Assembly (NCBI GenBank): GCA_964416765.1
Contig: CAYQEU010000001.1
Span: forward strand, 475,168-539,167
Source of the DNA: an uncultured Candidatus Saccharibacteria bacterium
GTDB lineage: Bacteria > Patescibacteriota > Doudnabacteria > UBA920
Direction: 5' to 3'
DNA length: 64,000 nt
In this document: positions 2 to 10,901 of the stretch, in pieces
Position numbering within the stretch: the stretch's first letter is position 1
How the letters are laid out: each line of letters opens with the position of its first letter
Notes under the pieces: model-generated
The model's database searches: none
What the model was told of the DNA's origin: nothing
Seen by the model: only the letters and a program-made list of their open reading frames with translations
Translations under genes and position numbers: made by a program

Positions 2-142
2 AACGAATTCACCATTACCGACGATACGTTTTTGGCGCGGGTGCTGCAGCACGAAATTGACCACTTGAACAACATCCTGATCGCCGACAAATTTACCAAA
101 GTAACCCAGGGAGCGGATCTTCTGCCTCAATATCAGCCATGA
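2..142 (+). CDS. def: Peptide deformylase, C-terminal fragment (5' end outside window)
   Basis: Frame-2 translation ...ARVLQHEIDHLNNILIADKF...; QHEIDHLNG-type motif 3 of peptide deformylase; stop TGA overlaps next ATG (ATGA). Confidence 0.8.
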   Translation, partial: NEFTITDDTFLARVLQHEIDHLNNILIADKFTKVTQGADLLPQYQP

Positions 143-675
143 AATTCATAAAAGACATACTAGTCATAGACGTTGAGACCACCGGCCAGGACGTGGATAA
201 AGACAGCATTATACATTTGGCCGGAGTTGTATTAGACAAAGATAACCTGCTAGAGAAGAACTTTTTTTCTTCCTACGTACGCGTTAGCTTGCTTGATGGA
301 ACCATTAACCAGCACGCCCAGCTCCTTGGCATCCCGTTCGACCTCCTGCGCAAGAGTCCGAAAGTCTACGATACTATTAAAGCGTTTCGTGGTAACCTCG
401 GCCGCGACTATTTACTGGCGGTGCACAACATCGACAAAATTTTGTTCCTGCGCAACGCATTCCGGAAAACTTTACTGCCCTGGGACTACGACCCGCATAT
501 TTTGGAATTATGGACGCTCGGCTATATTTACACCTTGAATTACGGCATCAAGAAAATGCCAACTTTCCACACATTCCTCGACCATTTTAATTTGAAGCTT
601 AAAAACCGCGCGGACGCTTTGGAGCGCGCGCGGCTGTCGGCGGAAATTTTCCGCCGCATCATTAAAGAAATCTAA
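139..675 (+). CDS. DnaQ-like DEDD exonuclease-fold protein; Exo III motif degenerate (H and D replaced), possibly catalytically inactive paralog
   Basis: Exo I VIDVETTG and Exo II VHNIDKILFL present; Exo III region reads KNRADALERA instead of H-x4-D; translationally coupled to def and next gene. Confidence 0.6.
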   Translation: MKFIKDILVIDVETTGQDVDKDSIIHLAGVVLDKDNLLEKNFFSSYVRVSLLDGTINQHAQLLGIPFDLLRKSPKVYDTIKAFRGNLGRDYLLAVHNIDKILFLRNAFRKTLLPWDYDPHILELWTLGYIYTLNYGIKKMPTFHTFLDHFNLKLKNRADALERARLSAEIFRRIIKEI

Positions 676-676
676 C

Positions 677-1243
677 ATGTTCAAAAGGGACTTACTTTTG
701 TTTGACATTGAAGCAACGGGCATCAATATCGCCAAGCACGAAATGATTCAGCTGGCAGCTATTTTGCTGGACAAAAATACCTTGAAAGAAAAAGGCACTT
801 TCACCACATATATCAAGCCCAAAAAGTGGTCACAGCGAAGCCGCGAAGCCATGGCGGTAAATAAGATTACCTGGGACCAGCTCAAGGACGCGCCGACCAT
901 GCGGGTGGCGTTAAAGAAGTTTATCAAACAATTTTCCACTAACGTTACTCTCGCCCACTATGGGGGCATGATTGACATCCCGTTTTTGGCCACGGCTTTC
1001 GCGACCGAGAAAATGAAGTACCCTTACGACTACCACGTATTCGACCTGTGGCCGGTGTTTTATGTGTATATGGCCAATAAAAAGAAATTAAATGACCCAG
1101 CTAAAGTCCCCGGGTTTAGTCTCGACGGCATCGCCAGGCACTTCAAGGTTAAAGTGCCTGGCAGCCGCCACGACGCGCTGACAGATTGCCGCGTGGAAGC
1201 GGAAGTCCTACGTCACGTTCTGAAAGAAATTAAGACCCGCTAA
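677..1243 (+). CDS. DEDDh 3'-5' exonuclease (DnaQ/epsilon-like), all three Exo motifs intact
   Basis: Exo I FDIEATG, Exo II AHYGGMIDIPFL, Exo III SRHDALTDCRVEA; stop overlaps fmt start (TAATG). Confidence 0.7.
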   Translation: MFKRDLLLFDIEATGINIAKHEMIQLAAILLDKNTLKEKGTFTTYIKPKKWSQRSREAMAVNKITWDQLKDAPTMRVALKKFIKQFSTNVTLAHYGGMIDIPFLATAFATEKMKYPYDYHVFDLWPVFYVYMANKKKLNDPAKVPGFSLDGIARHFKVKVPGSRHDALTDCRVEAEVLRHVLKEIKTR

Positions 1244-4494: not shown

Positions 4495-6156
4495 TTACTT
4501 ATGTTCGGCTTCCGCTAAATCCACTACAGCTGTTTCCTCCAAGTCGCTGTTAAGGGGCAACGAGAAAATAAAGGAAGATCCCTTACCTTCTCCTTCACTT
4601 TCCACCCATATCTTTCCGTGATTTTGTTCGATAATTACTTTAGCTACGTATAGCCCAAGCCCTAAACCGGTAGCGGCAGTGGCTGCGTCTTTTCCTCGTG
4701 TATATTTGGAAAACAGAGTCGGTGCAATTTTAGGGTCCACTCCCCTACCTGTGTCTTTAACTTTCATGATTAAATCTGTAGGAGTTTTCTCTATACTCAT
4801 GGTTACTGAGCCTTGTTTGGTGTACTTTATTGCATTGTCGACCATGTTATTTATCACTTGTCTGACTTTTTCCTTGTCCATCATTACTGCGGGCAATGGT
4901 TCCGTAGGGACATTGTATACAAGTTCTATTTTCCTCATTTTAGCCTGAGGAAGTAACTGATCATAGGTTATTCTAGCTAATTCGGCCAGATCGGCTTTTT
5001 CAAAGAAGAATTCCATCTTACCCCTTTCGATGCGTGAGGCATTCAACAGGTCATCAATCAAGGAAATCTGGGAGTTATTTGTAGACTGCACCCTTTCAAG
5101 AGCAGACTTTACCTCTTCATTAAGATCCCCAAAATCCCCGGATAGCACGGCTCCAATGTACCACTTAATTGTAGCGGGGGGCGTGCGTAACTGGTGACTA
5201 GCAATAGAGATAAACTCTGCGCGTGCTTTATCCAGCGCTTCTAGCTTGACATTAGCTTCTTTCAACTGCTCCGTTAGAATTTGGAGTTGCTCTCTCTGTT
5301 TTACTTCATTAATTACGCTCCGTATAAGGAGTATTCCTACACCCAGTACGAGAACAAAAACACTTGATCTAAATATTACTATAGTTAGAGTATTAGAAAC
5401 AATCACTTCAATAAAGGTAGCTATCCCAAGAACAAAGACCAATATCTCCGTGGAAAGTATTTTTACATTTAGGAGTTTGCGACGAATTATGGCATAGCTC
5501 GCAGAAACTATGAATGGAAAGATAAACACCCCTCCCATTGGAACAAAACGTGGATTATTAAGAAAGGCAGGAAAAATAAAATTAAACACGACTAAAAGCC
5601 CAAACATTATCAACATTCCTACTAAGAAAGGCTTTAACTGTTTCTTAACTAAGTCATCGGAACGTATTATGCGTACTACTAGTCTGAACAACGAATAAGC
5701 TATTACGCTGAGAACAAATAAACCAAAAATTGCAATACCCGGGCCGTTTTGAACTCTGGATACTCTACCTTGTGTAAATTCAAGAACCCTGACAAAGACG
5801 TATGGCGTAAGAGTGAATAACGAAATAGCTCCGGTAGCAACAACCAACCATCTATCTTTAGCTCTTCTTGACCTTTCTTCGTTCGGTACCACGTACAAAA
5901 GGTAAAACAATGACGTTACCAACCAACAAGCTAAAAAGATTTCAAACCTTAGTAACCAAATGACTAACGACTGAGATTGGAATTGGTAACTTAGATAATT
6001 AACGACCGTCCAACTTATTGCTACTAAACAAAAATAGAAGAAATAACGGTTAGTTATACTTTTTGGGTTATTATAAAAGACCGCGTAACCTAGTATAAGG
6101 GTAGCTGCTACGCTGATACCAACCGACAACAGATCCAAATTGGTTAGAAAACCCAT
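4495..6156 (-). CDS. Sensor histidine kinase with ~6-TM N-terminal sensor region
   Basis: H-box FISIASHQLRTP, N-box DNAIKYT, G1 DTGRGVD, G2 GLGLGLYVAKVIIEQNHGKIWVESEGEGKGSSF; hydrophobic N-terminal half. Confidence 0.85.
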   Translation of the reverse strand: MGFLTNLDLLSVGISVAATLILGYAVFYNNPKSITNRYFFYFCLVAISWTVVNYLSYQFQSQSLVIWLLRFEIFLACWLVTSLFYLLYVVPNEERSRRAKDRWLVVATGAISLFTLTPYVFVRVLEFTQGRVSRVQNGPGIAIFGLFVLSVIAYSLFRLVVRIIRSDDLVKKQLKPFLVGMLIMFGLLVVFNFIFPAFLNNPRFVPMGGVFIFPFIVSASYAIIRRKLLNVKILSTEILVFVLGIATFIEVIVSNTLTIVIFRSSVFVLVLGVGILLIRSVINEVKQREQLQILTEQLKEANVKLEALDKARAEFISIASHQLRTPPATIKWYIGAVLSGDFGDLNEEVKSALERVQSTNNSQISLIDDLLNASRIERGKMEFFFEKADLAELARITYDQLLPQAKMRKIELVYNVPTEPLPAVMMDKEKVRQVINNMVDNAIKYTKQGSVTMSIEKTPTDLIMKVKDTGRGVDPKIAPTLFSKYTRGKDAATAATGLGLGLYVAKVIIEQNHGKIWVESEGEGKGSSFIFSLPLNSDLEETAVVDLAEAEHK

Positions 6157-6164
6157 TTGTTATA

Positions 6165-7229
6165 TTATGAGTATTTTATTTCTGGCTTCAATCGGGATGA
6201 CATCCCGCTTGGTGGGGTACTATATCCAATTCTAAATAACATAGCTACGCATTGTTGATCGTCCAACTTAGCTACATCTTGAATGATGCCATACGCATCA
6301 CTTATTATTTTAGCATGTTCTTCCGAAAGTGTTTGGTACTCCCCTGCCTTAATGCGCTGCGCTAAATAAACGATTCCTGTTACAGGATGCATACTTATTC
6401 CTAATTGCTCAGCATTAAGCCATATTCTTTGACTAATTTTGCCTGCTTGGAAAAACATCTTGTCATCATTTGGGACTACGACAAGACCGATGGCTGATCC
6501 ATTTGAATAAAGTTTAGAGTTATCCTTTGCTATAAAACGGGAAAGTTTTAAGGTTTGATTTAAAATGCGAGCTAGGGGCCAAACTTGTAGAATTTTAAAG
6601 AATATTAATTTTTGTAAGGGCAACTCCATCGTTTTCAAGTATAGACCTGTTTTTAGACTTCTCTCGGACGATGTAGTCCATCTGATATCCGCGTAAAATA
6701 GATCATGCAACTGTCTATTTTCCAACATAACTACTTCATTTTTTGACACCGCTTCACCAAGTAGTTGTTTTTGCTTTGGATCCTCAATTAAAATGAATTT
6801 TACATCTGGAGAGCCATTCCCTTCATGTAACAAGGAGTTTTTGTGTTCATCCTTGAGAGGAATATCTGCATAGAATTTCCTATTAGTCTGTCTAGACCTT
6901 ATAGAATTGACTAAGGGATTGGTGGTTGGGGCTGCAGGCATTAACTCAACTCGAAAGGTGTGAGAAGAATCCTCAGAATCGGGCCAAACATTTACATTGA
7001 CGGAATAGCCTAAGGTTTCTGCAACCAAGGAAATATTAGTTAAAAGAGCTCCGTGTGCTACTAATGTACCCCGTTGTCTATAATTAAATAGTACGTTATC
7101 CTTTTCCGGTAAGCTGTATACATCTATCACATTTTCGCGAACAACAAAATGCCACGGTTGAGAATTGTCCCCTGACGGTGCAAAGACGGCTTCCTCCAAA
7201 ATTTCCGTAATTTTCTTGGCGATTTCCAT
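6165..7229 (-). CDS. Nitroreductase-family oxidoreductase, apparently two nitroreductase-like domains (SagB/McbC-like architecture)
   Basis: N-terminal APSGDNSQPWHFVV nitroreductase signature; 354 aa, twice the usual domain length; 9-nt gap to HK gene. Confidence 0.55.
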   Translation of the reverse strand: MEIAKKITEILEEAVFAPSGDNSQPWHFVVRENVIDVYSLPEKDNVLFNYRQRGTLVAHGALLTNISLVAETLGYSVNVNVWPDSEDSSHTFRVELMPAAPTTNPLVNSIRSRQTNRKFYADIPLKDEHKNSLLHEGNGSPDVKFILIEDPKQKQLLGEAVSKNEVVMLENRQLHDLFYADIRWTTSSERSLKTGLYLKTMELPLQKLIFFKILQVWPLARILNQTLKLSRFIAKDNSKLYSNGSAIGLVVVPNDDKMFFQAGKISQRIWLNAEQLGISMHPVTGIVYLAQRIKAGEYQTLSEEHAKIISDAYGIIQDVAKLDDQQCVAMLFRIGYSTPPSGMSSRLKPEIKYS

Positions 7230-7236
7230 AACTTAC

Positions 7237-8352
7237 TTAAAGTAAATTCATCTTACCTAAAATATCATTCCTTTCTTGGTCCCGGTCTGACTTCGTGTTA
7301 GGTTCAAAGATATCCTCAAGACTCACATTATACTTACCTCCCTTAATGTTCTTCCCCTCAGCGAAGGCACGAAGCAGATAGGCTGTAACTACTCCGCTAA
7401 ATGAAGCGGCACTTCCTAGCTGAGGCCAGGAATACAGTGTCTTCCCCACTTCCATAAGTGAAGACAGCATTCTAGGAACTATATATTCGGGTCCTGCAAC
7501 TTTAGTTGCCAGCCGGGGTAGTTCTGTAGGCGGAAAGTTCATGAATTGTTCCATTCCAAAATCACCCAACGCACCGTTAAATAGCTGTAATTCTCGATCT
7601 AAATCATATCTCTCCACGTCCACAATTACACTATCTCCGTTATCAGTTGCCATAATTACAGGGGTTCCTGTCTCTCTTGCAACTTCTCTCAACCGAATTT
7701 TCATGGGTAAGTTATCAACACCCTCAACCAATATATTCAAGCCACTCAGGAAATCAACAATATTATTTTCATCTATACCTTCTTCGTAGAGATCAATTTC
7801 TGCATAAGGATTAATTTCTGCGATGATTCTGGCAGCCACCAGGGCTTTGTTCGTGCCTAGAACTGAGGCTCCGTATCTTAACCTATTCAAATTAGAAACA
7901 GATACTTCATCAGGATCGGCTAACTTAACCTGCTTTGCTCCTCCCATTATAGCAGTGGTTAGCGCGCCATGACTTCCTACGCTTAAACCTGCGAAACCCA
8001 CTCGGTAGTTGTAGTATTTCTCTTGTTCAGAGGAAGTAATTAGATTTTTATTTCTCGCCGTTCGCAATTCTAAATATTCCTTCTCAGGCAAATAGTGTAT
8101 CAAGCAATTAGACCATTCAAAATAAAACCACTCCCCGCACTCTTCGTAAGACTTCCCTTTCGTCTCAACCTTTAGAAACTCGTTTAGCTCAGTTTCGTAG
8201 TCGGTTAAAAAACGAAATTTTGGATTCCTTATAAAAAATAATTCTTTTAGTTGTTCCTCATAGCCATCGACTAACTTGACGTTTCGCTCTTCAATAAACT
8301 CATTCAATCCGCCGTCTGTGAAACTCTTTTTTTCTGCTGAAAATTTTATCAT
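7237..8352 (-). CDS. ThiF/MoeB/E1-like adenylyltransferase-family protein with ~115-aa N-terminal extension
   Basis: Rossmann GxGxxG YRVGFAGLSVGSHGALTTAIMGGAKQVKLADPDEVSVSNLNRL typical of E1-like ThiF family; 8-nt gap to nitroreductase. Confidence 0.7.
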   Translation of the reverse strand: MIKFSAEKKSFTDGGLNEFIEERNVKLVDGYEEQLKELFFIRNPKFRFLTDYETELNEFLKVETKGKSYEECGEWFYFEWSNCLIHYLPEKEYLELRTARNKNLITSSEQEKYYNYRVGFAGLSVGSHGALTTAIMGGAKQVKLADPDEVSVSNLNRLRYGASVLGTNKALVAARIIAEINPYAEIDLYEEGIDENNIVDFLSGLNILVEGVDNLPMKIRLREVARETGTPVIMATDNGDSVIVDVERYDLDRELQLFNGALGDFGMEQFMNFPPTELPRLATKVAGPEYIVPRMLSSLMEVGKTLYSWPQLGSAASFSGVVTAYLLRAFAEGKNIKGGKYNVSLEDIFEPNTKSDRDQERNDILGKMNLL

Positions 8353-8355
8353 AGT

Positions 8356-9852
8356 TTATGCCTTATTTAACCATTGTTGTTTAATACCACTCTTAAAATG
8401 AGTGTCGTGGTTGTAAGTCCAAAAAACAATATAAGGAGCAGTTCTTTTAATACCAAGCATTTTTGTTAGTTCTTTGAATTCGGAATTATGCTGAAGCAAT
8501 GTCGATATAACACTTTTTTGCGTGATTGCTCGGAGTTTTTTACTCACCGTAACTCTTGGCTTCATCTCAACATTAACTTCTAAAAATTGATTGCTCTTTT
8601 TGTCATAGACCGTTCTCATAGAAAATTTACCCGTTAGGTAAGGATGAAGGGTTCTACTCTCGAGAGCAATTTTAATAGTCTGCGGATAGACTTGTAAACC
8701 ATATAATGTCGTTGAAAAATCGCTTCGTTCATACACGTAGACGAAAGGTAGCGCATTCAAGCTGACTTTAGCTCCTTTTGCTTCTGATATGAGGTCGATC
8801 CCGTTCCTGCTAAATGCCGCAATTATTTCAGACAATCTATATGTACCTCCGCGGTCTCCAATATCGTAACGCAAAAAAGGTGTAGCACTATCGGCAGATA
8901 TAAGTACCTTACCTTCTTCCTCGTCGAATGCTATGAAGCTCGGGTTGTATTGGGCTAAGGTTGGAATTTTGTTATCCCTAAACAACTCTTGATAAACTTC
9001 TGCATGCTGAAGTGCTAGTCTTCTAATGAATATGCTCGCTGGGGTTTCAAATGCCATGGCTCCTAGCTCAGCACTTCCATATAGATTAAGAGTATCATTA
9101 TAGATATTTTTAATCTTTCCTCTTTTTACCACATAATCTCTGAAGTTTTCGGTAAAACTTTCTGCCGCAAACAGAAGCCTGAGGTTGAATTTAGAAAAAT
9201 CAATTTTCTCCAGCTTTGCTTCGTCCAATAGATCCTTTATGAAAGGAGGGTATCCTGCCAATATAACGTTATCAAAATTGACAGCAAGATTCCTCAGCGC
9301 GTGAAAGATCTCTTTTTTGTTTATTCCTGGAGTGATAATTGTCACAGGATGTCCTCTCAACGCTGTTATACGAAATGCCTGATATGTAATCAAACCCCCA
9401 ATCCAAACTCCCATACCAAAACAGTCTACTAGTAAAGTAGATCCTTTAGGCCCATTTTTTAGGAAGAATTCGGCTATAAGCGAATAATGTTCGTCCACAT
9501 CCTCTGTTCTAGGAAAGTATGTAGGTGACCCCGTAGATCCAGAAGTAGCCGTCATCACTTGACCCTTTTCCCGAAGCAAATTCTTCCAAGTTGTATCCGT
9601 TAAAGGGAACTTTTTAAAATAATTAGTTTTTGAAATAGGAGGTATGGCCGAAATGTCCGAATATTTTTTTATATTTCGAATCTTGATTCTAGCTTTAGAA
9701 AGATACCTCTTATAAGCAGTAACACCCTTGGTCATACTGTGAAATAACCGAAACGTAAGGTGTCTTTGTTTAGTCCCCCAAAAATTTTCAGCGCGTGCAA
9801 GCGTAGATGAGGTAATAGCGCGTGTTTCCTGAAGAGACTTAAAACTATTCAT
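8356..9852 (-). CDS. Adenylate-forming enzyme of the phenylacetate-CoA ligase / F390-synthetase (PaaK-like) family
   Basis: AMP-binding P-loop-like TSGSTGSPTYFP; overall length and YGSAE motif consistent with PaaK/CapK family. Confidence 0.6.
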   Translation of the reverse strand: MNSFKSLQETRAITSSTLARAENFWGTKQRHLTFRLFHSMTKGVTAYKRYLSKARIKIRNIKKYSDISAIPPISKTNYFKKFPLTDTTWKNLLREKGQVMTATSGSTGSPTYFPRTEDVDEHYSLIAEFFLKNGPKGSTLLVDCFGMGVWIGGLITYQAFRITALRGHPVTIITPGINKKEIFHALRNLAVNFDNVILAGYPPFIKDLLDEAKLEKIDFSKFNLRLLFAAESFTENFRDYVVKRGKIKNIYNDTLNLYGSAELGAMAFETPASIFIRRLALQHAEVYQELFRDNKIPTLAQYNPSFIAFDEEEGKVLISADSATPFLRYDIGDRGGTYRLSEIIAAFSRNGIDLISEAKGAKVSLNALPFVYVYERSDFSTTLYGLQVYPQTIKIALESRTLHPYLTGKFSMRTVYDKKSNQFLEVNVEMKPRVTVSKKLRAITQKSVISTLLQHNSEFKELTKMLGIKRTAPYIVFWTYNHDTHFKSGIKQQWLNKA

Positions 9853-10901
9853 TACTGTTTATTAAATATTTTTTCTGCCATAGCATCTGCCACGGCGTCA
9901 GGATTCAATTTTTGTTTCGATGATTCATCCAAAACTTTCTTGAGCGTCTTCTTCAGATTATTGATATTTTTTAATACCCTTGTTTTATCATATCCACCTG
10001 GTAAAAGTTCATCCGCTACATTGATCAACCCTCCCGCATTTGCAATATAATCAGGAATGTGAAGAATGCCTTTCTGGAACAACTTATCCTTTATACTTTC
10101 ATCCGCTAATTGATTATTAGCGGTGCCGCAAACAATTGGAGCTCTGAGGCTTTTTAATCTCTCATCATCAATATCATTTCCCAACGCACAGGGACAATAT
10201 ACGTCTACTTCAGTTGTCTGCATTTCGCTCATTGTCACCGGCTGAATGTTAGGATGCAATTTTGATAACAAGTCTATTTTGGTCGAATCTATATCGGTAG
10301 CAAAAACTACTCCACCGGCCTTAGCTAATAACCAAGCTAATTCGCTTCCCGTTTTCCCCACTCCTTTTATGGCGAATTTTTTTCCCGTAATATCGGAATT
10401 GTTATACAAGTGTTCTAAAGCTACTTGAATACAAAGGAATACGCTCATGGCGGCGTATTTGGATGGATCCCCTGCCAAACCAGTTTTACCAATGAAGTAC
10501 GGACTGTACTGAAGCATGTATTGCACCTGTGGCTCGCTAAGGCCAACATCTTCGCCAGTATAAAATCTCCCTTTGAGAGAGCTTACTTTTTCGGCATAGG
10601 ATTTTAGAATTGCGTTGGTATCAGAGTGTGCCAAATCAGCAATGATTACACCTTTTCCTCCTCCAAAGGGTAGTCCTGCGATTGCACATTTATAAGTCAT
10701 AGCACGCGAAAGCCTTAAAACATCTTTTAATGCTTGTTCTTTGTCTTGGTAATTAAATATGCGGGTACCGCCCAATGCTGGTCCCAAATTTGTGTTGTGA
10801 ACGGCAATATAACCGGAAATTCCCGAGTTGTCTTCCGACAAGTCAACGACCTGTTCGTGATCTTGGTATTCCGGTGTTTTGTTAATATCTATGTAATCCA
10901 C
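9852..10901 (-). CDS. Glu/Leu/Phe/Val dehydrogenase family (leucine/phenylalanine dehydrogenase-like)
   Basis: GGTRIFNY...AIAGLPFGGGKGVI catalytic Lys motif; C-terminal NAD Rossmann GVGKTGSELA; 349 aa. Confidence 0.8.
   Translation of the reverse strand: MDYIDINKTPEYQDHEQVVDLSEDNSGISGYIAVHNTNLGPALGGTRIFNYQDKEQALKDVLRLSRAMTYKCAIAGLPFGGGKGVIIADLAHSDTNAILKSYAEKVSSLKGRFYTGEDVGLSEPQVQYMLQYSPYFIGKTGLAGDPSKYAAMSVFLCIQVALEHLYNNSDITGKKFAIKGVGKTGSELAWLLAKAGGVVFATDIDSTKIDLLSKLHPNIQPVTMSEMQTTEVDVYCPCALGNDIDDERLKSLRAPIVCGTANNQLADESIKDKLFQKGILHIPDYIANAGGLINVADELLPGGYDKTRVLKNINNLKKTLKKVLDESSKQKLNPDAVADAMAEKIFNKQ

Follow-up and report, generated by a model that had tools for sequence, protein, structure and literature searches.

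A conserved pseudo-exonuclease and its active-looking DEDDh paralogue between def and fmt in Doudnabacteria-type Patescibacteria

Why do two exonuclease-like genes stand between def and fmt, and what could the first of them do if its active site has been lost? The question is raised by the start of a 64,000-nt stretch of contig CAYQEU010000001.1 (positions 1-64000, hereafter the window), in which an earlier note had described two tandem DEDDh-family genes, here called exoA and exoB, lying between the genes for peptide deformylase and methionyl-tRNA formyltransferase. The tandem arrangement was borne out, as both products match PF00929 and share 32% identity across a 185-column alignment (pairwise BLAST, E 1e-27), and re-reading of the open reading frames (ORFs) and the sequence showed all of the coordinates and junctions given in that note to be correct. 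ExoB carries a complete set of catalytic residues, and ExoA has lost its own yet is the more strongly conserved of the two. The reading that we favour, with a probability of roughly 45%, is that ExoA serves as a non-catalytic partner of ExoB. The features at this end of the window are:

1-142, + strand: peptide deformylase gene def, of which the 3′-terminal 46 codons are present, with the HEIDH metal motif and a TGA stop at 140-142 (PF01327, 33.5 bits, model positions 120-154 of 156; TIGR00079 match)
139-675, + strand: exoA, ORF for a predicted 178-aa DEDDh-fold pseudo-exonuclease (PF00929, 45.2 bits; AlphaFold2 (AF2) predicted local distance difference test score (pLDDT) 83)
677-1243, + strand: exoB, ORF for an active-looking 188-aa DEDDh 3′-5′ exonuclease (PF00929, 86.4 bits; AF2 pLDDT 94)
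1243-2199, + strand: fmt, methionyl-tRNA formyltransferase (TIGR00460, 273.3 bits against a cutoff of 201.5; PF00551 and PF02911 matches)
2215-2240, no strand assigned: terminator-like hairpin (stem of 11 bp, flanked on either side by T-rich sequence) in the gap where fmt and mltG/YceG converge (pattern scan, consensus match only)

The four genes are closely packed in the window. Read from the sequence, the def stop codon TGA (140-142) overlaps the exoA ATG (139-141) as ATGA, the exoA stop codon TAA (673-675) is followed by the single base C676 and then the exoB ATG (677-679), and the exoB TAA (1241-1243) shares one base with the fmt ATG (1243-1245) as TAATG. The C-terminal def fragment corresponds to window positions 2-138 (PF01327 match including HEIDH), and full-length def was found at the equivalent position in relatives. 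The pattern scan found no comparable terminator-like site between def and fmt in the window, just weak intragenic matches, and the hairpin at 2215-2240, a consensus match, likely forms the 3′ end of a def-exoA-exoB-fmt transcript in this genome. The 64-kb window contains no Rfam family at gathering thresholds, no rRNA and no further gene of the ExoA/ExoB exonuclease family, and neither the window nor 13 related loci yielded a tRNA with ARAGORN.

ExoB matches PF00929 (RNase_T; gathering score 24) over its full length (model positions 2-164 of 164), and ExoA matches it over the N-terminal two thirds only (1-106 of 164). The ExoB model, built with a family alignment, has an RNase H-like alpha/beta exonuclease fold (pLDDT 93.9); the ExoA model has the DEDDh fold, with one of five models confident. 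Both proteins are basic (isoelectric point ~9), and each ends with the last helix of the exonuclease domain in the AF2 models (residues 160-177 of 178 in ExoA and 167-186 of 188 in ExoB). ExoB joins the DEDDh superfamily as an ordinary new member, with predicted activity.

The catalytic residues were compared across 41 related loci, obtained from a one-genome-per-species scan, in metagenome-assembled genomes titled Candidatus Doudnabacteria or Patescibacteria group, or bulk-labelled 'uncultured Saccharibacteria'. The downstream copy had been described as retaining all three Exo motifs, and this proved correct: ExoB contains FDIEATG (aa 9-15), HYGGMIDIPF (94-103) and HDALTD (165-170), and the pentad D10, E12, D100, H165 and D170 is complete and invariant in 34/34 orthologues and in alignment A2. 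The window ExoA reads IDVETTG at Exo I (D11, E13) and ADALER at Exo III, where A158 and R163 replace the His and Asp, in agreement with the earlier description of the upstream copy as lacking these two residues. The accompanying claim that this copy keeps Exo I and Exo II stands for D11 and E13 in the window genome, but fails for Exo II and for the family. The Exo II Asp is ambiguous (D98 or K99), with D98 pairing with ExoB D100 in BLAST and lying one column off in the family alignment, and neither candidate column is conserved among orthologues. None of the five pentad positions is conserved in 34 ExoA orthologues, and the same applies to 10 divergent clusters. The residues present in the orthologues (n = 34) were:

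Exo I Asp position: E/D/Q/A
Exo I Glu position: Q/E/T/N/G/I/S
Exo II Asp position: N/K/Q/R/S/H/P
Exo III His position: Y/F/W/H/N/S/A
Exo III Asp position: K/R/Q/T

As no pentad position is conserved in the ExoA family, D11, E13 and perhaps D98 in the window protein are relics that selection does not maintain. A profile search of 1.84 billion representative proteins showed that the ExoA type forms a narrow clade (11 clusters at E <=1e-30 and 59 at E <=1e-10), in which the full-length top clusters are all degenerate at the pentad; essentially all of the more distant matches have an intact DEDHD set.

ExoA could still be an enzyme if its catalytic residues had been relocated, and the pseudoenzyme literature describes cases in which such residues have migrated (PMC10211241). 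The window protein does retain D11 and E13, plus D98 at or next to Exo II, and E162, one residue before the Exo III Asp position, is invariant. Relocated catalysis is nevertheless very improbable, given the variability of all five pentad positions across the orthologues and the lack of conservation of E162 in a single-copy sister lineage (described below). The conserved residues D6, D33, D118 and H120 are also kept in ExoB, and are therefore features of the fold rather than replacements. The earlier note had named catalytic residues retained at shifted positions as an outcome that would refute its reading, and the orthologue alignments contain no alternative conserved set of acidic or His residues that would rebuild a two-metal site. 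As ExoA has the family fold but fails the catalytic-residue test, we place it among the DEDDh-fold pseudoenzymes rather than the exonucleases.

Loss of the catalytic site has not been accompanied by relaxed constraint. Nearly all ExoA homologues have a length of 177-179 aa, and they share 59-98% identity with the window protein. The mean pairwise identities among the 31 genomes having all four genes were:

ExoA: 0.59
ExoB: 0.50
Fmt: 0.55
Def: 0.60

ExoA is slower-evolving than ExoB in 93% of genome pairs, and its rate is about that of Def and Fmt. The ratio of nonsynonymous to synonymous substitution rates (dN/dS), calculated for selected genome pairs with unsaturated dS, was 0.003-0.019 for ExoA and 0.008-0.096 for ExoB, indicating selection on both genes. 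The possibility that ExoA is a decaying pseudogene was ruled out by the low dN/dS and the constant length. Invariant motifs of ExoA are MKFIKD (1-6), TTG (14-16) in the loop after Exo I, LLDKDNLLEK (31-40) on the beta2-beta3 hairpin, DYDxH..LW (116-125), and K139, P141 and T145 in a further loop. Judged on its residues and substitution rates, ExoA is a true pseudoenzyme under strong purifying selection and, having lost its catalytic site yet being more conserved than ExoB, must therefore have another function.

The order def-exoA-exoB-fmt was met in ~80 related loci from genomes and metagenomes. It is present in ~33 species genomes, and also in the divergent ExoA clusters P0164 and P0169 and, as far as the contig end, in P0173. 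Among metagenome contigs found with an ExoB profile, 25 loci contain all four genes, and ExoA precedes ExoB in the 47 loci with enough upstream sequence. The def-exo-exo-fmt synteny, which the earlier note had suggested checking in related genomes, is thus conserved; its opposing scenario of a lineage-wide duplication with both copies active does not apply, as the duplication is lineage-wide but one copy is inactive. One further locus is ambiguous (L097; related loci are numbered with the prefix L). The ExoB-like gene at L097:107-673 (39% identity) is on a short contig, the 106 nt available upstream leave no room for an ExoA gene to be seen, and no fmt was detectable in 940 nt downstream. This is the sole such ExoB-like gene and a possible exception to the fixed order, so that ExoB without ExoA occurs in at most one ambiguous short-contig case. 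Active relatives from outside the clade are found in unrelated contexts, for example ATP synthase/TatD and pterin dehydratase/DEAD helicase. The neighbours in all loci are def, fmt, mltG/YceG, UPF0047, gltX and WecG-NUDIX. A defence or CRISPR role, for which a domain match (PADLOC PDLC01247, Cap18-type effectors) would be expected together with adjacent cas or defence genes, was rejected: PADLOC gave only the generic DEDDh domain (PDLC01247; 86.3 and 37.9 bits), and the neighbours are housekeeping genes.

In each of the related loci inspected, a conserved small ORF (89-110 aa) without a Pfam match immediately precedes def in the same orientation (for example L027:3189-3467, L042:9254-9547, L044:5218-5550 and L030:3256-3525), with the motif LHSPAHLLADE...FGFYLKMA..YDH..LR....PG.LFAFLIKK. 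It may be the first gene of the def-exo-fmt unit; the window itself begins inside def.

The overlapping junctions had been taken to imply co-translation, and the pair to be embedded in a formyl-methionine (fMet) processing operon. Both proposals hold for the window, where the junctions overlap and there is no internal terminator, but weaken across the family. In relatives the median gaps are 75 nt for def-exoA, 76 nt for exoA-exoB and 32 nt for exoB-fmt, and the exoA-exoB gap is <=10 nt in only 5/32, which rules out translational coupling as a conserved trait. The exoB-fmt spacer reaches 330-750 nt in some relatives. These long spacers are unconserved (37% column identity), with the exception of a promoter-like motif (TTGTCAA, ~17 nt, TATAxT) before fmt in three relatives, which suggests that fmt is transcribed separately there. 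The motif (GAGAGTTTTGTCAA, ~17 nt, TATAxT) lies just 5′ of fmt in the spacers L006:5177-5719, L023:5179-5531 and L010:5576-6217. As the tight junctions are not conserved, coupling and a single fMet operon are traits of the window genome and not of the family. The exoB-fmt gap of L011 contains two extra ORFs (104 and 158 aa). In six long-spacer relatives searched against Rfam at E up to 0.1, only chance-level matches elsewhere were obtained, and the spacers contain no tRNA or Rfam family.

In a sister Doudnabacteria lineage, def and fmt are separated by a single DEDDh-like gene (176-182 aa). It was found in four genome loci (L030, L031, L032 and L037) and ~55 protein clusters, and forms its own clade in an approximate neighbour-joining tree. 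Two such genes are:

L042:10001-10531: single-copy DEDDh-like gene, sister Doudnabacteria lineage
L043:10001-10549: single-copy DEDDh-like gene, sister Doudnabacteria lineage

The pentad of the single-copy protein is mostly DENHN. The Exo II Asp is absent in 52/52 sequences (N in 47, S in 3 and A in 2), as is the Exo III Asp (52/52; N, T, S, K or A). A DEDD enzyme that lacks two of its four metal-binding carboxylates is expected to have no activity, as is the case for Klenow exonuclease-site mutants, and by this analogy the single-copy protein should be inactive. It is under purifying selection (dN/dS 0.037), and shares the LLD.DNLLEK hairpin and the DYH..W and K.PT motifs with ExoA. The simplest history, suggested by motifs common to ExoA and the single-copy type and absent from ExoB, would be that one active gene was duplicated, that the def-proximal copy was inactivated before the lineages split, and that ExoB was subsequently lost or moved in one of them. 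Two further observations were made in the single-copy lineage: DUF218 takes the place of mltG downstream, and a second peptide deformylase paralogue (L042:16247-16816, 189 aa) lies on the opposite strand ~6 kb downstream of def-exo-fmt.

How, then, might ExoA and ExoB be related in function? The earlier note had suggested a heterodimer of an active and an inactive exonuclease, and a partnership of this kind may exist. Mirror-tree analysis showed strong co-variation of their rates, with a correlation of distances r(ExoA,ExoB) of 0.88 and a partial r, given Fmt and Def, of 0.75, relative to 0.02-0.49 for other gene pairs. This result, which goes beyond shared phylogeny, is suggestive of a partnership, and ExoB occurs strictly together with ExoA, with L097 the one ambiguous case. 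Among DEDDh enzymes, RNase T, oligoribonuclease and TREX form obligate dimers whose active sites are shared between the subunits. In the reading that we favour, a small single-domain DEDDh exonuclease has undergone an ancient tandem duplication in the same-strand row def-exoA-exoB-fmt of Doudnabacteria-type Patescibacteria (candidate phyla radiation, CPR). ExoB would be the catalytic partner, a two-metal 3′-5′ exonuclease with an intact DEDDh pentad. ExoA, which has lost catalysis and retained the fold, the basic charge, the TTG loop, the DKDNLLEK hairpin tip and the K139-P141-T145 surface loop, would act as a non-catalytic binding subunit or adaptor that holds a nucleic-acid 3′ end or a protein partner. 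Together they would function in housekeeping RNA 3′-end processing, probably as a single-active-site complex. Physical contact between the two proteins and a preference for RNA over DNA are both predictions of this reading, and a link to the fMet cycle would be a separate, equally conditional one. The opposite-strand flanks gltX, WecG-NUDIX, mltG and UPF0047 are equally syntenic, meaning that the local order is generally stable and that order alone is no proof of a tie to fMet.

Several observations weigh against it. The mirror-tree distances are non-independent, and paralogues may share rate shifts without contact. The close exoA-exoB spacing of the window is not a property of the relatives. 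No second RNase_T gene was found within 10 kb in the single-copy lineage, on contigs of 540 kb and 227 kb; the dead protein can thus function with no ExoB gene next to its own. ExoA has its most constrained motifs in common with the single-copy protein, and these are therefore not specific to an ExoB interface. Finally, neither fold nor sequence comparison tells RNA-type DEDDh enzymes from DNA-type ones or gives a subfamily winner, and the choice between an RNA and a DNA substrate therefore cannot be made from them.

These points lead to the alternative that ExoA is autonomous, a dead exonuclease reused as a binding protein tied to Def or translation start, with ExoB a separate housekeeping exonuclease left adjacent by the duplication. 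Candidate partners would be the single-stranded 3′ end of tRNA or rRNA, Def, or the ribosome. An ExoA-type gene lies directly 3′ of def in every locus examined, including the lineage that has no nearby ExoB, and the selected single-copy protein has the same invariant DKDNLLEK hairpin and K-P-T loop. The D-to-N and E-to-Q changes in that protein are near-isosteric, so that metal binding would be lost and a 3′-end pocket could persist; the TTG loop is also conserved. We regard an autonomous ExoA as possible, with considerable doubt, as it leaves unexplained both the strong rate co-variation with ExoB and the lack of a clear ExoA-less ExoB. In addition, with the opposite-strand flanks equally syntenic, adjacency to def may simply reflect slow rearrangement. 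In a more specific form, the ExoA type would be a factor particular to this lineage of Doudnabacteria and dedicated to translation start or to the fMet cycle. It might serve as a docking site for Def or Fmt, or bind the initiator tRNA at its single-stranded 3′ end, with ExoB being optional. This would explain why the gene always follows def, survives without ExoB and is conserved like Def and Fmt, and we consider it unlikely.

Whichever role applies, the pair is a lineage-specific pseudo-exonuclease with an active-looking exonuclease, a variant of the known DEDDh family. The inactive copy is under tighter constraint than the active one, at a level close to that of the essential Def and Fmt, which points to an important non-catalytic function in ultra-small uncultured bacteria, a group whose RNA-processing and replication machinery is poorly understood. 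To our knowledge, bacterial pseudoenzymes derived from nucleases have rarely been documented. If the favoured single-active-site complex of ExoA and ExoB is real, it would be a clean bacterial case of a homodimeric exonuclease subfunctionalised into catalytic and substrate-binding subunits; a role alongside Def, Fmt or tRNA would instead make ExoA a new player in bacterial translation start. The two proteins are small and soluble-looking, and should be readily tractable in vitro.

Elsewhere in the window, a run of genes on the opposite strand (4495-10901) was recorded:

4495-6156, - strand: seven-transmembrane (7TM) histidine kinase
6165-7229, - strand: nitroreductase-family protein
7237-8352, - strand: ThiF-like protein
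8356-9852, - strand: 497-aa protein with no Pfam match
9852-10901, - strand: Glu/Leu/Phe/Val dehydrogenase-like protein

The trio of nitroreductase, ThiF-like and 497-aa proteins resembles ribosomal-peptide-modifying clusters (azoline-forming, or like those for thiazole/oxazole-modified microcins (TOMM)).

Comparison with known systems places both proteins within the DEDDh exonucleases without assigning them to a subfamily. Foldseek searches with the two models returned E. coli Pol III epsilon, S. aureus DinG, the S. thermophilus DnaQ domain, RNase T, 3′hExo/ERI1, ERI3, CRN-4 and PolC at template-modelling (TM) scores of 0.6-0.8, with no clear winner for either model. ExoB matched Pol III epsilon, RNase T, 3′hExo and PolC with a probability of 1.00 and TM scores of 0.7-0.8, and also the DinG exonuclease domain; ExoA matched at 0.6-0.75, with the DinG and DnaQ exonuclease domains best. 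Scores against the NCBIfam equivalogs for DnaQ, PolC, RNase T, oligoribonuclease, KapD and ExoX were all far under cutoff, and PDB sequence matches were weak (ERI1 and the Thermotoga PolC exonuclease domain, E 1e-5 to 1e-6).

DnaQ/Pol III epsilon and PolC (PF00929) share the fold and the three Exo motifs, and this likeness raises the possibility that the pair serves DNA replication or repair, with ExoB acting in proofreading or repair in the manner of DnaQ/epsilon, ExoA being a dead accessory subunit of the epsilon type, and the position between def and fmt being incidental. The best fold match of ExoB is indeed the E. coli Pol III epsilon domain (2ido, TM 0.76-0.81), PolC superposes with a root-mean-square deviation of 2.3 Å, the sequence searches gave PolC/DnaQ-type NCBIfam models and the PolC exonuclease domain of Thermotoga (2p1j) as their best matches, and the top folds for the ExoA model are of the DinG and DnaQ type. 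However, the bit scores fall well short of membership (TIGR00573, 41.9 for ExoB and 28.3 for ExoA against 71.5; TIGR01406, 35.3 for ExoB against 222.7), and RNase T, ERI1/3′hExo and ERI3 match nearly as well. In E. coli epsilon, a C-terminal segment after the exonuclease domain binds polymerase alpha, and there is a clamp-binding motif. ExoA and ExoB stop at the last exonuclease helix and so lack both the alpha-binding tail and the clamp motif; they are standalone proteins of 178-188 aa, encoded between def and fmt, and one of them is dead. A replication or repair role is accordingly improbable in our view.

The homodimeric RNase T and oligoribonuclease have the same fold and a similar size (~180-210 aa), and RNase T chains are among the top folds for both models. 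These enzymes are obligate dimers in which one subunit lends substrate-binding residues to the active site of the other, and RNase T-type dimers would be a natural structural template for the active/dead ExoB-ExoA dimer of the favoured reading. The family models score far lower than their cutoffs: TIGR01298 (RNase T) gave 16.4 bits for ExoB and 11.9 for ExoA against 246.2, and the oligoribonuclease model NF003765 (cutoff 106) gave ExoA 17 bits in a match confined to the N-terminal 30 residues, with ExoB absent from the best 25 of 29 matches. We know of no heterodimeric active/dead DEDDh pair of the RNase T or oligoribonuclease type in bacteria.

ERI1/3′hExo is the best PDB match of ExoB by phmmer (E 3e-5), over residues 20-85 (beta2-hairpin-beta3-alpha), with an LLxxxTLxxxxxF hairpin in common, and the model NF005838 for B. 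subtilis KapD was matched at E 2.5e-8. The similarity to ERI1, ERI3 and KapD is local and under cutoffs (33.7 against 169 bits), and no SAP or other accessory domain is present here. Full-text searching of the published literature returned nothing on the ExoA-ExoB pair, on an exonuclease gene set between def and fmt, or on a dead DEDDh paralogue conserved across a bacterial lineage.

The closest functional analogy is with non-catalytic DEDD-fold proteins, in which the exonuclease fold is kept for another role. In yeast Pop2/Caf1 and Drosophila Exuperantia the fold is kept for scaffolding or binding, and catalysis is dispensable or lost. In T. brucei TbLrRP1, the DEDDh motifs are dispensable and the protein pairs with a different nuclease (PMC12702573). 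TbLrRP1, Pop2/Caf1 and Exuperantia are eukaryotic, multidomain proteins with non-paralogous partners, whereas ExoA is bacterial, consists of a single domain, and is encoded beside an active-looking paralogue.

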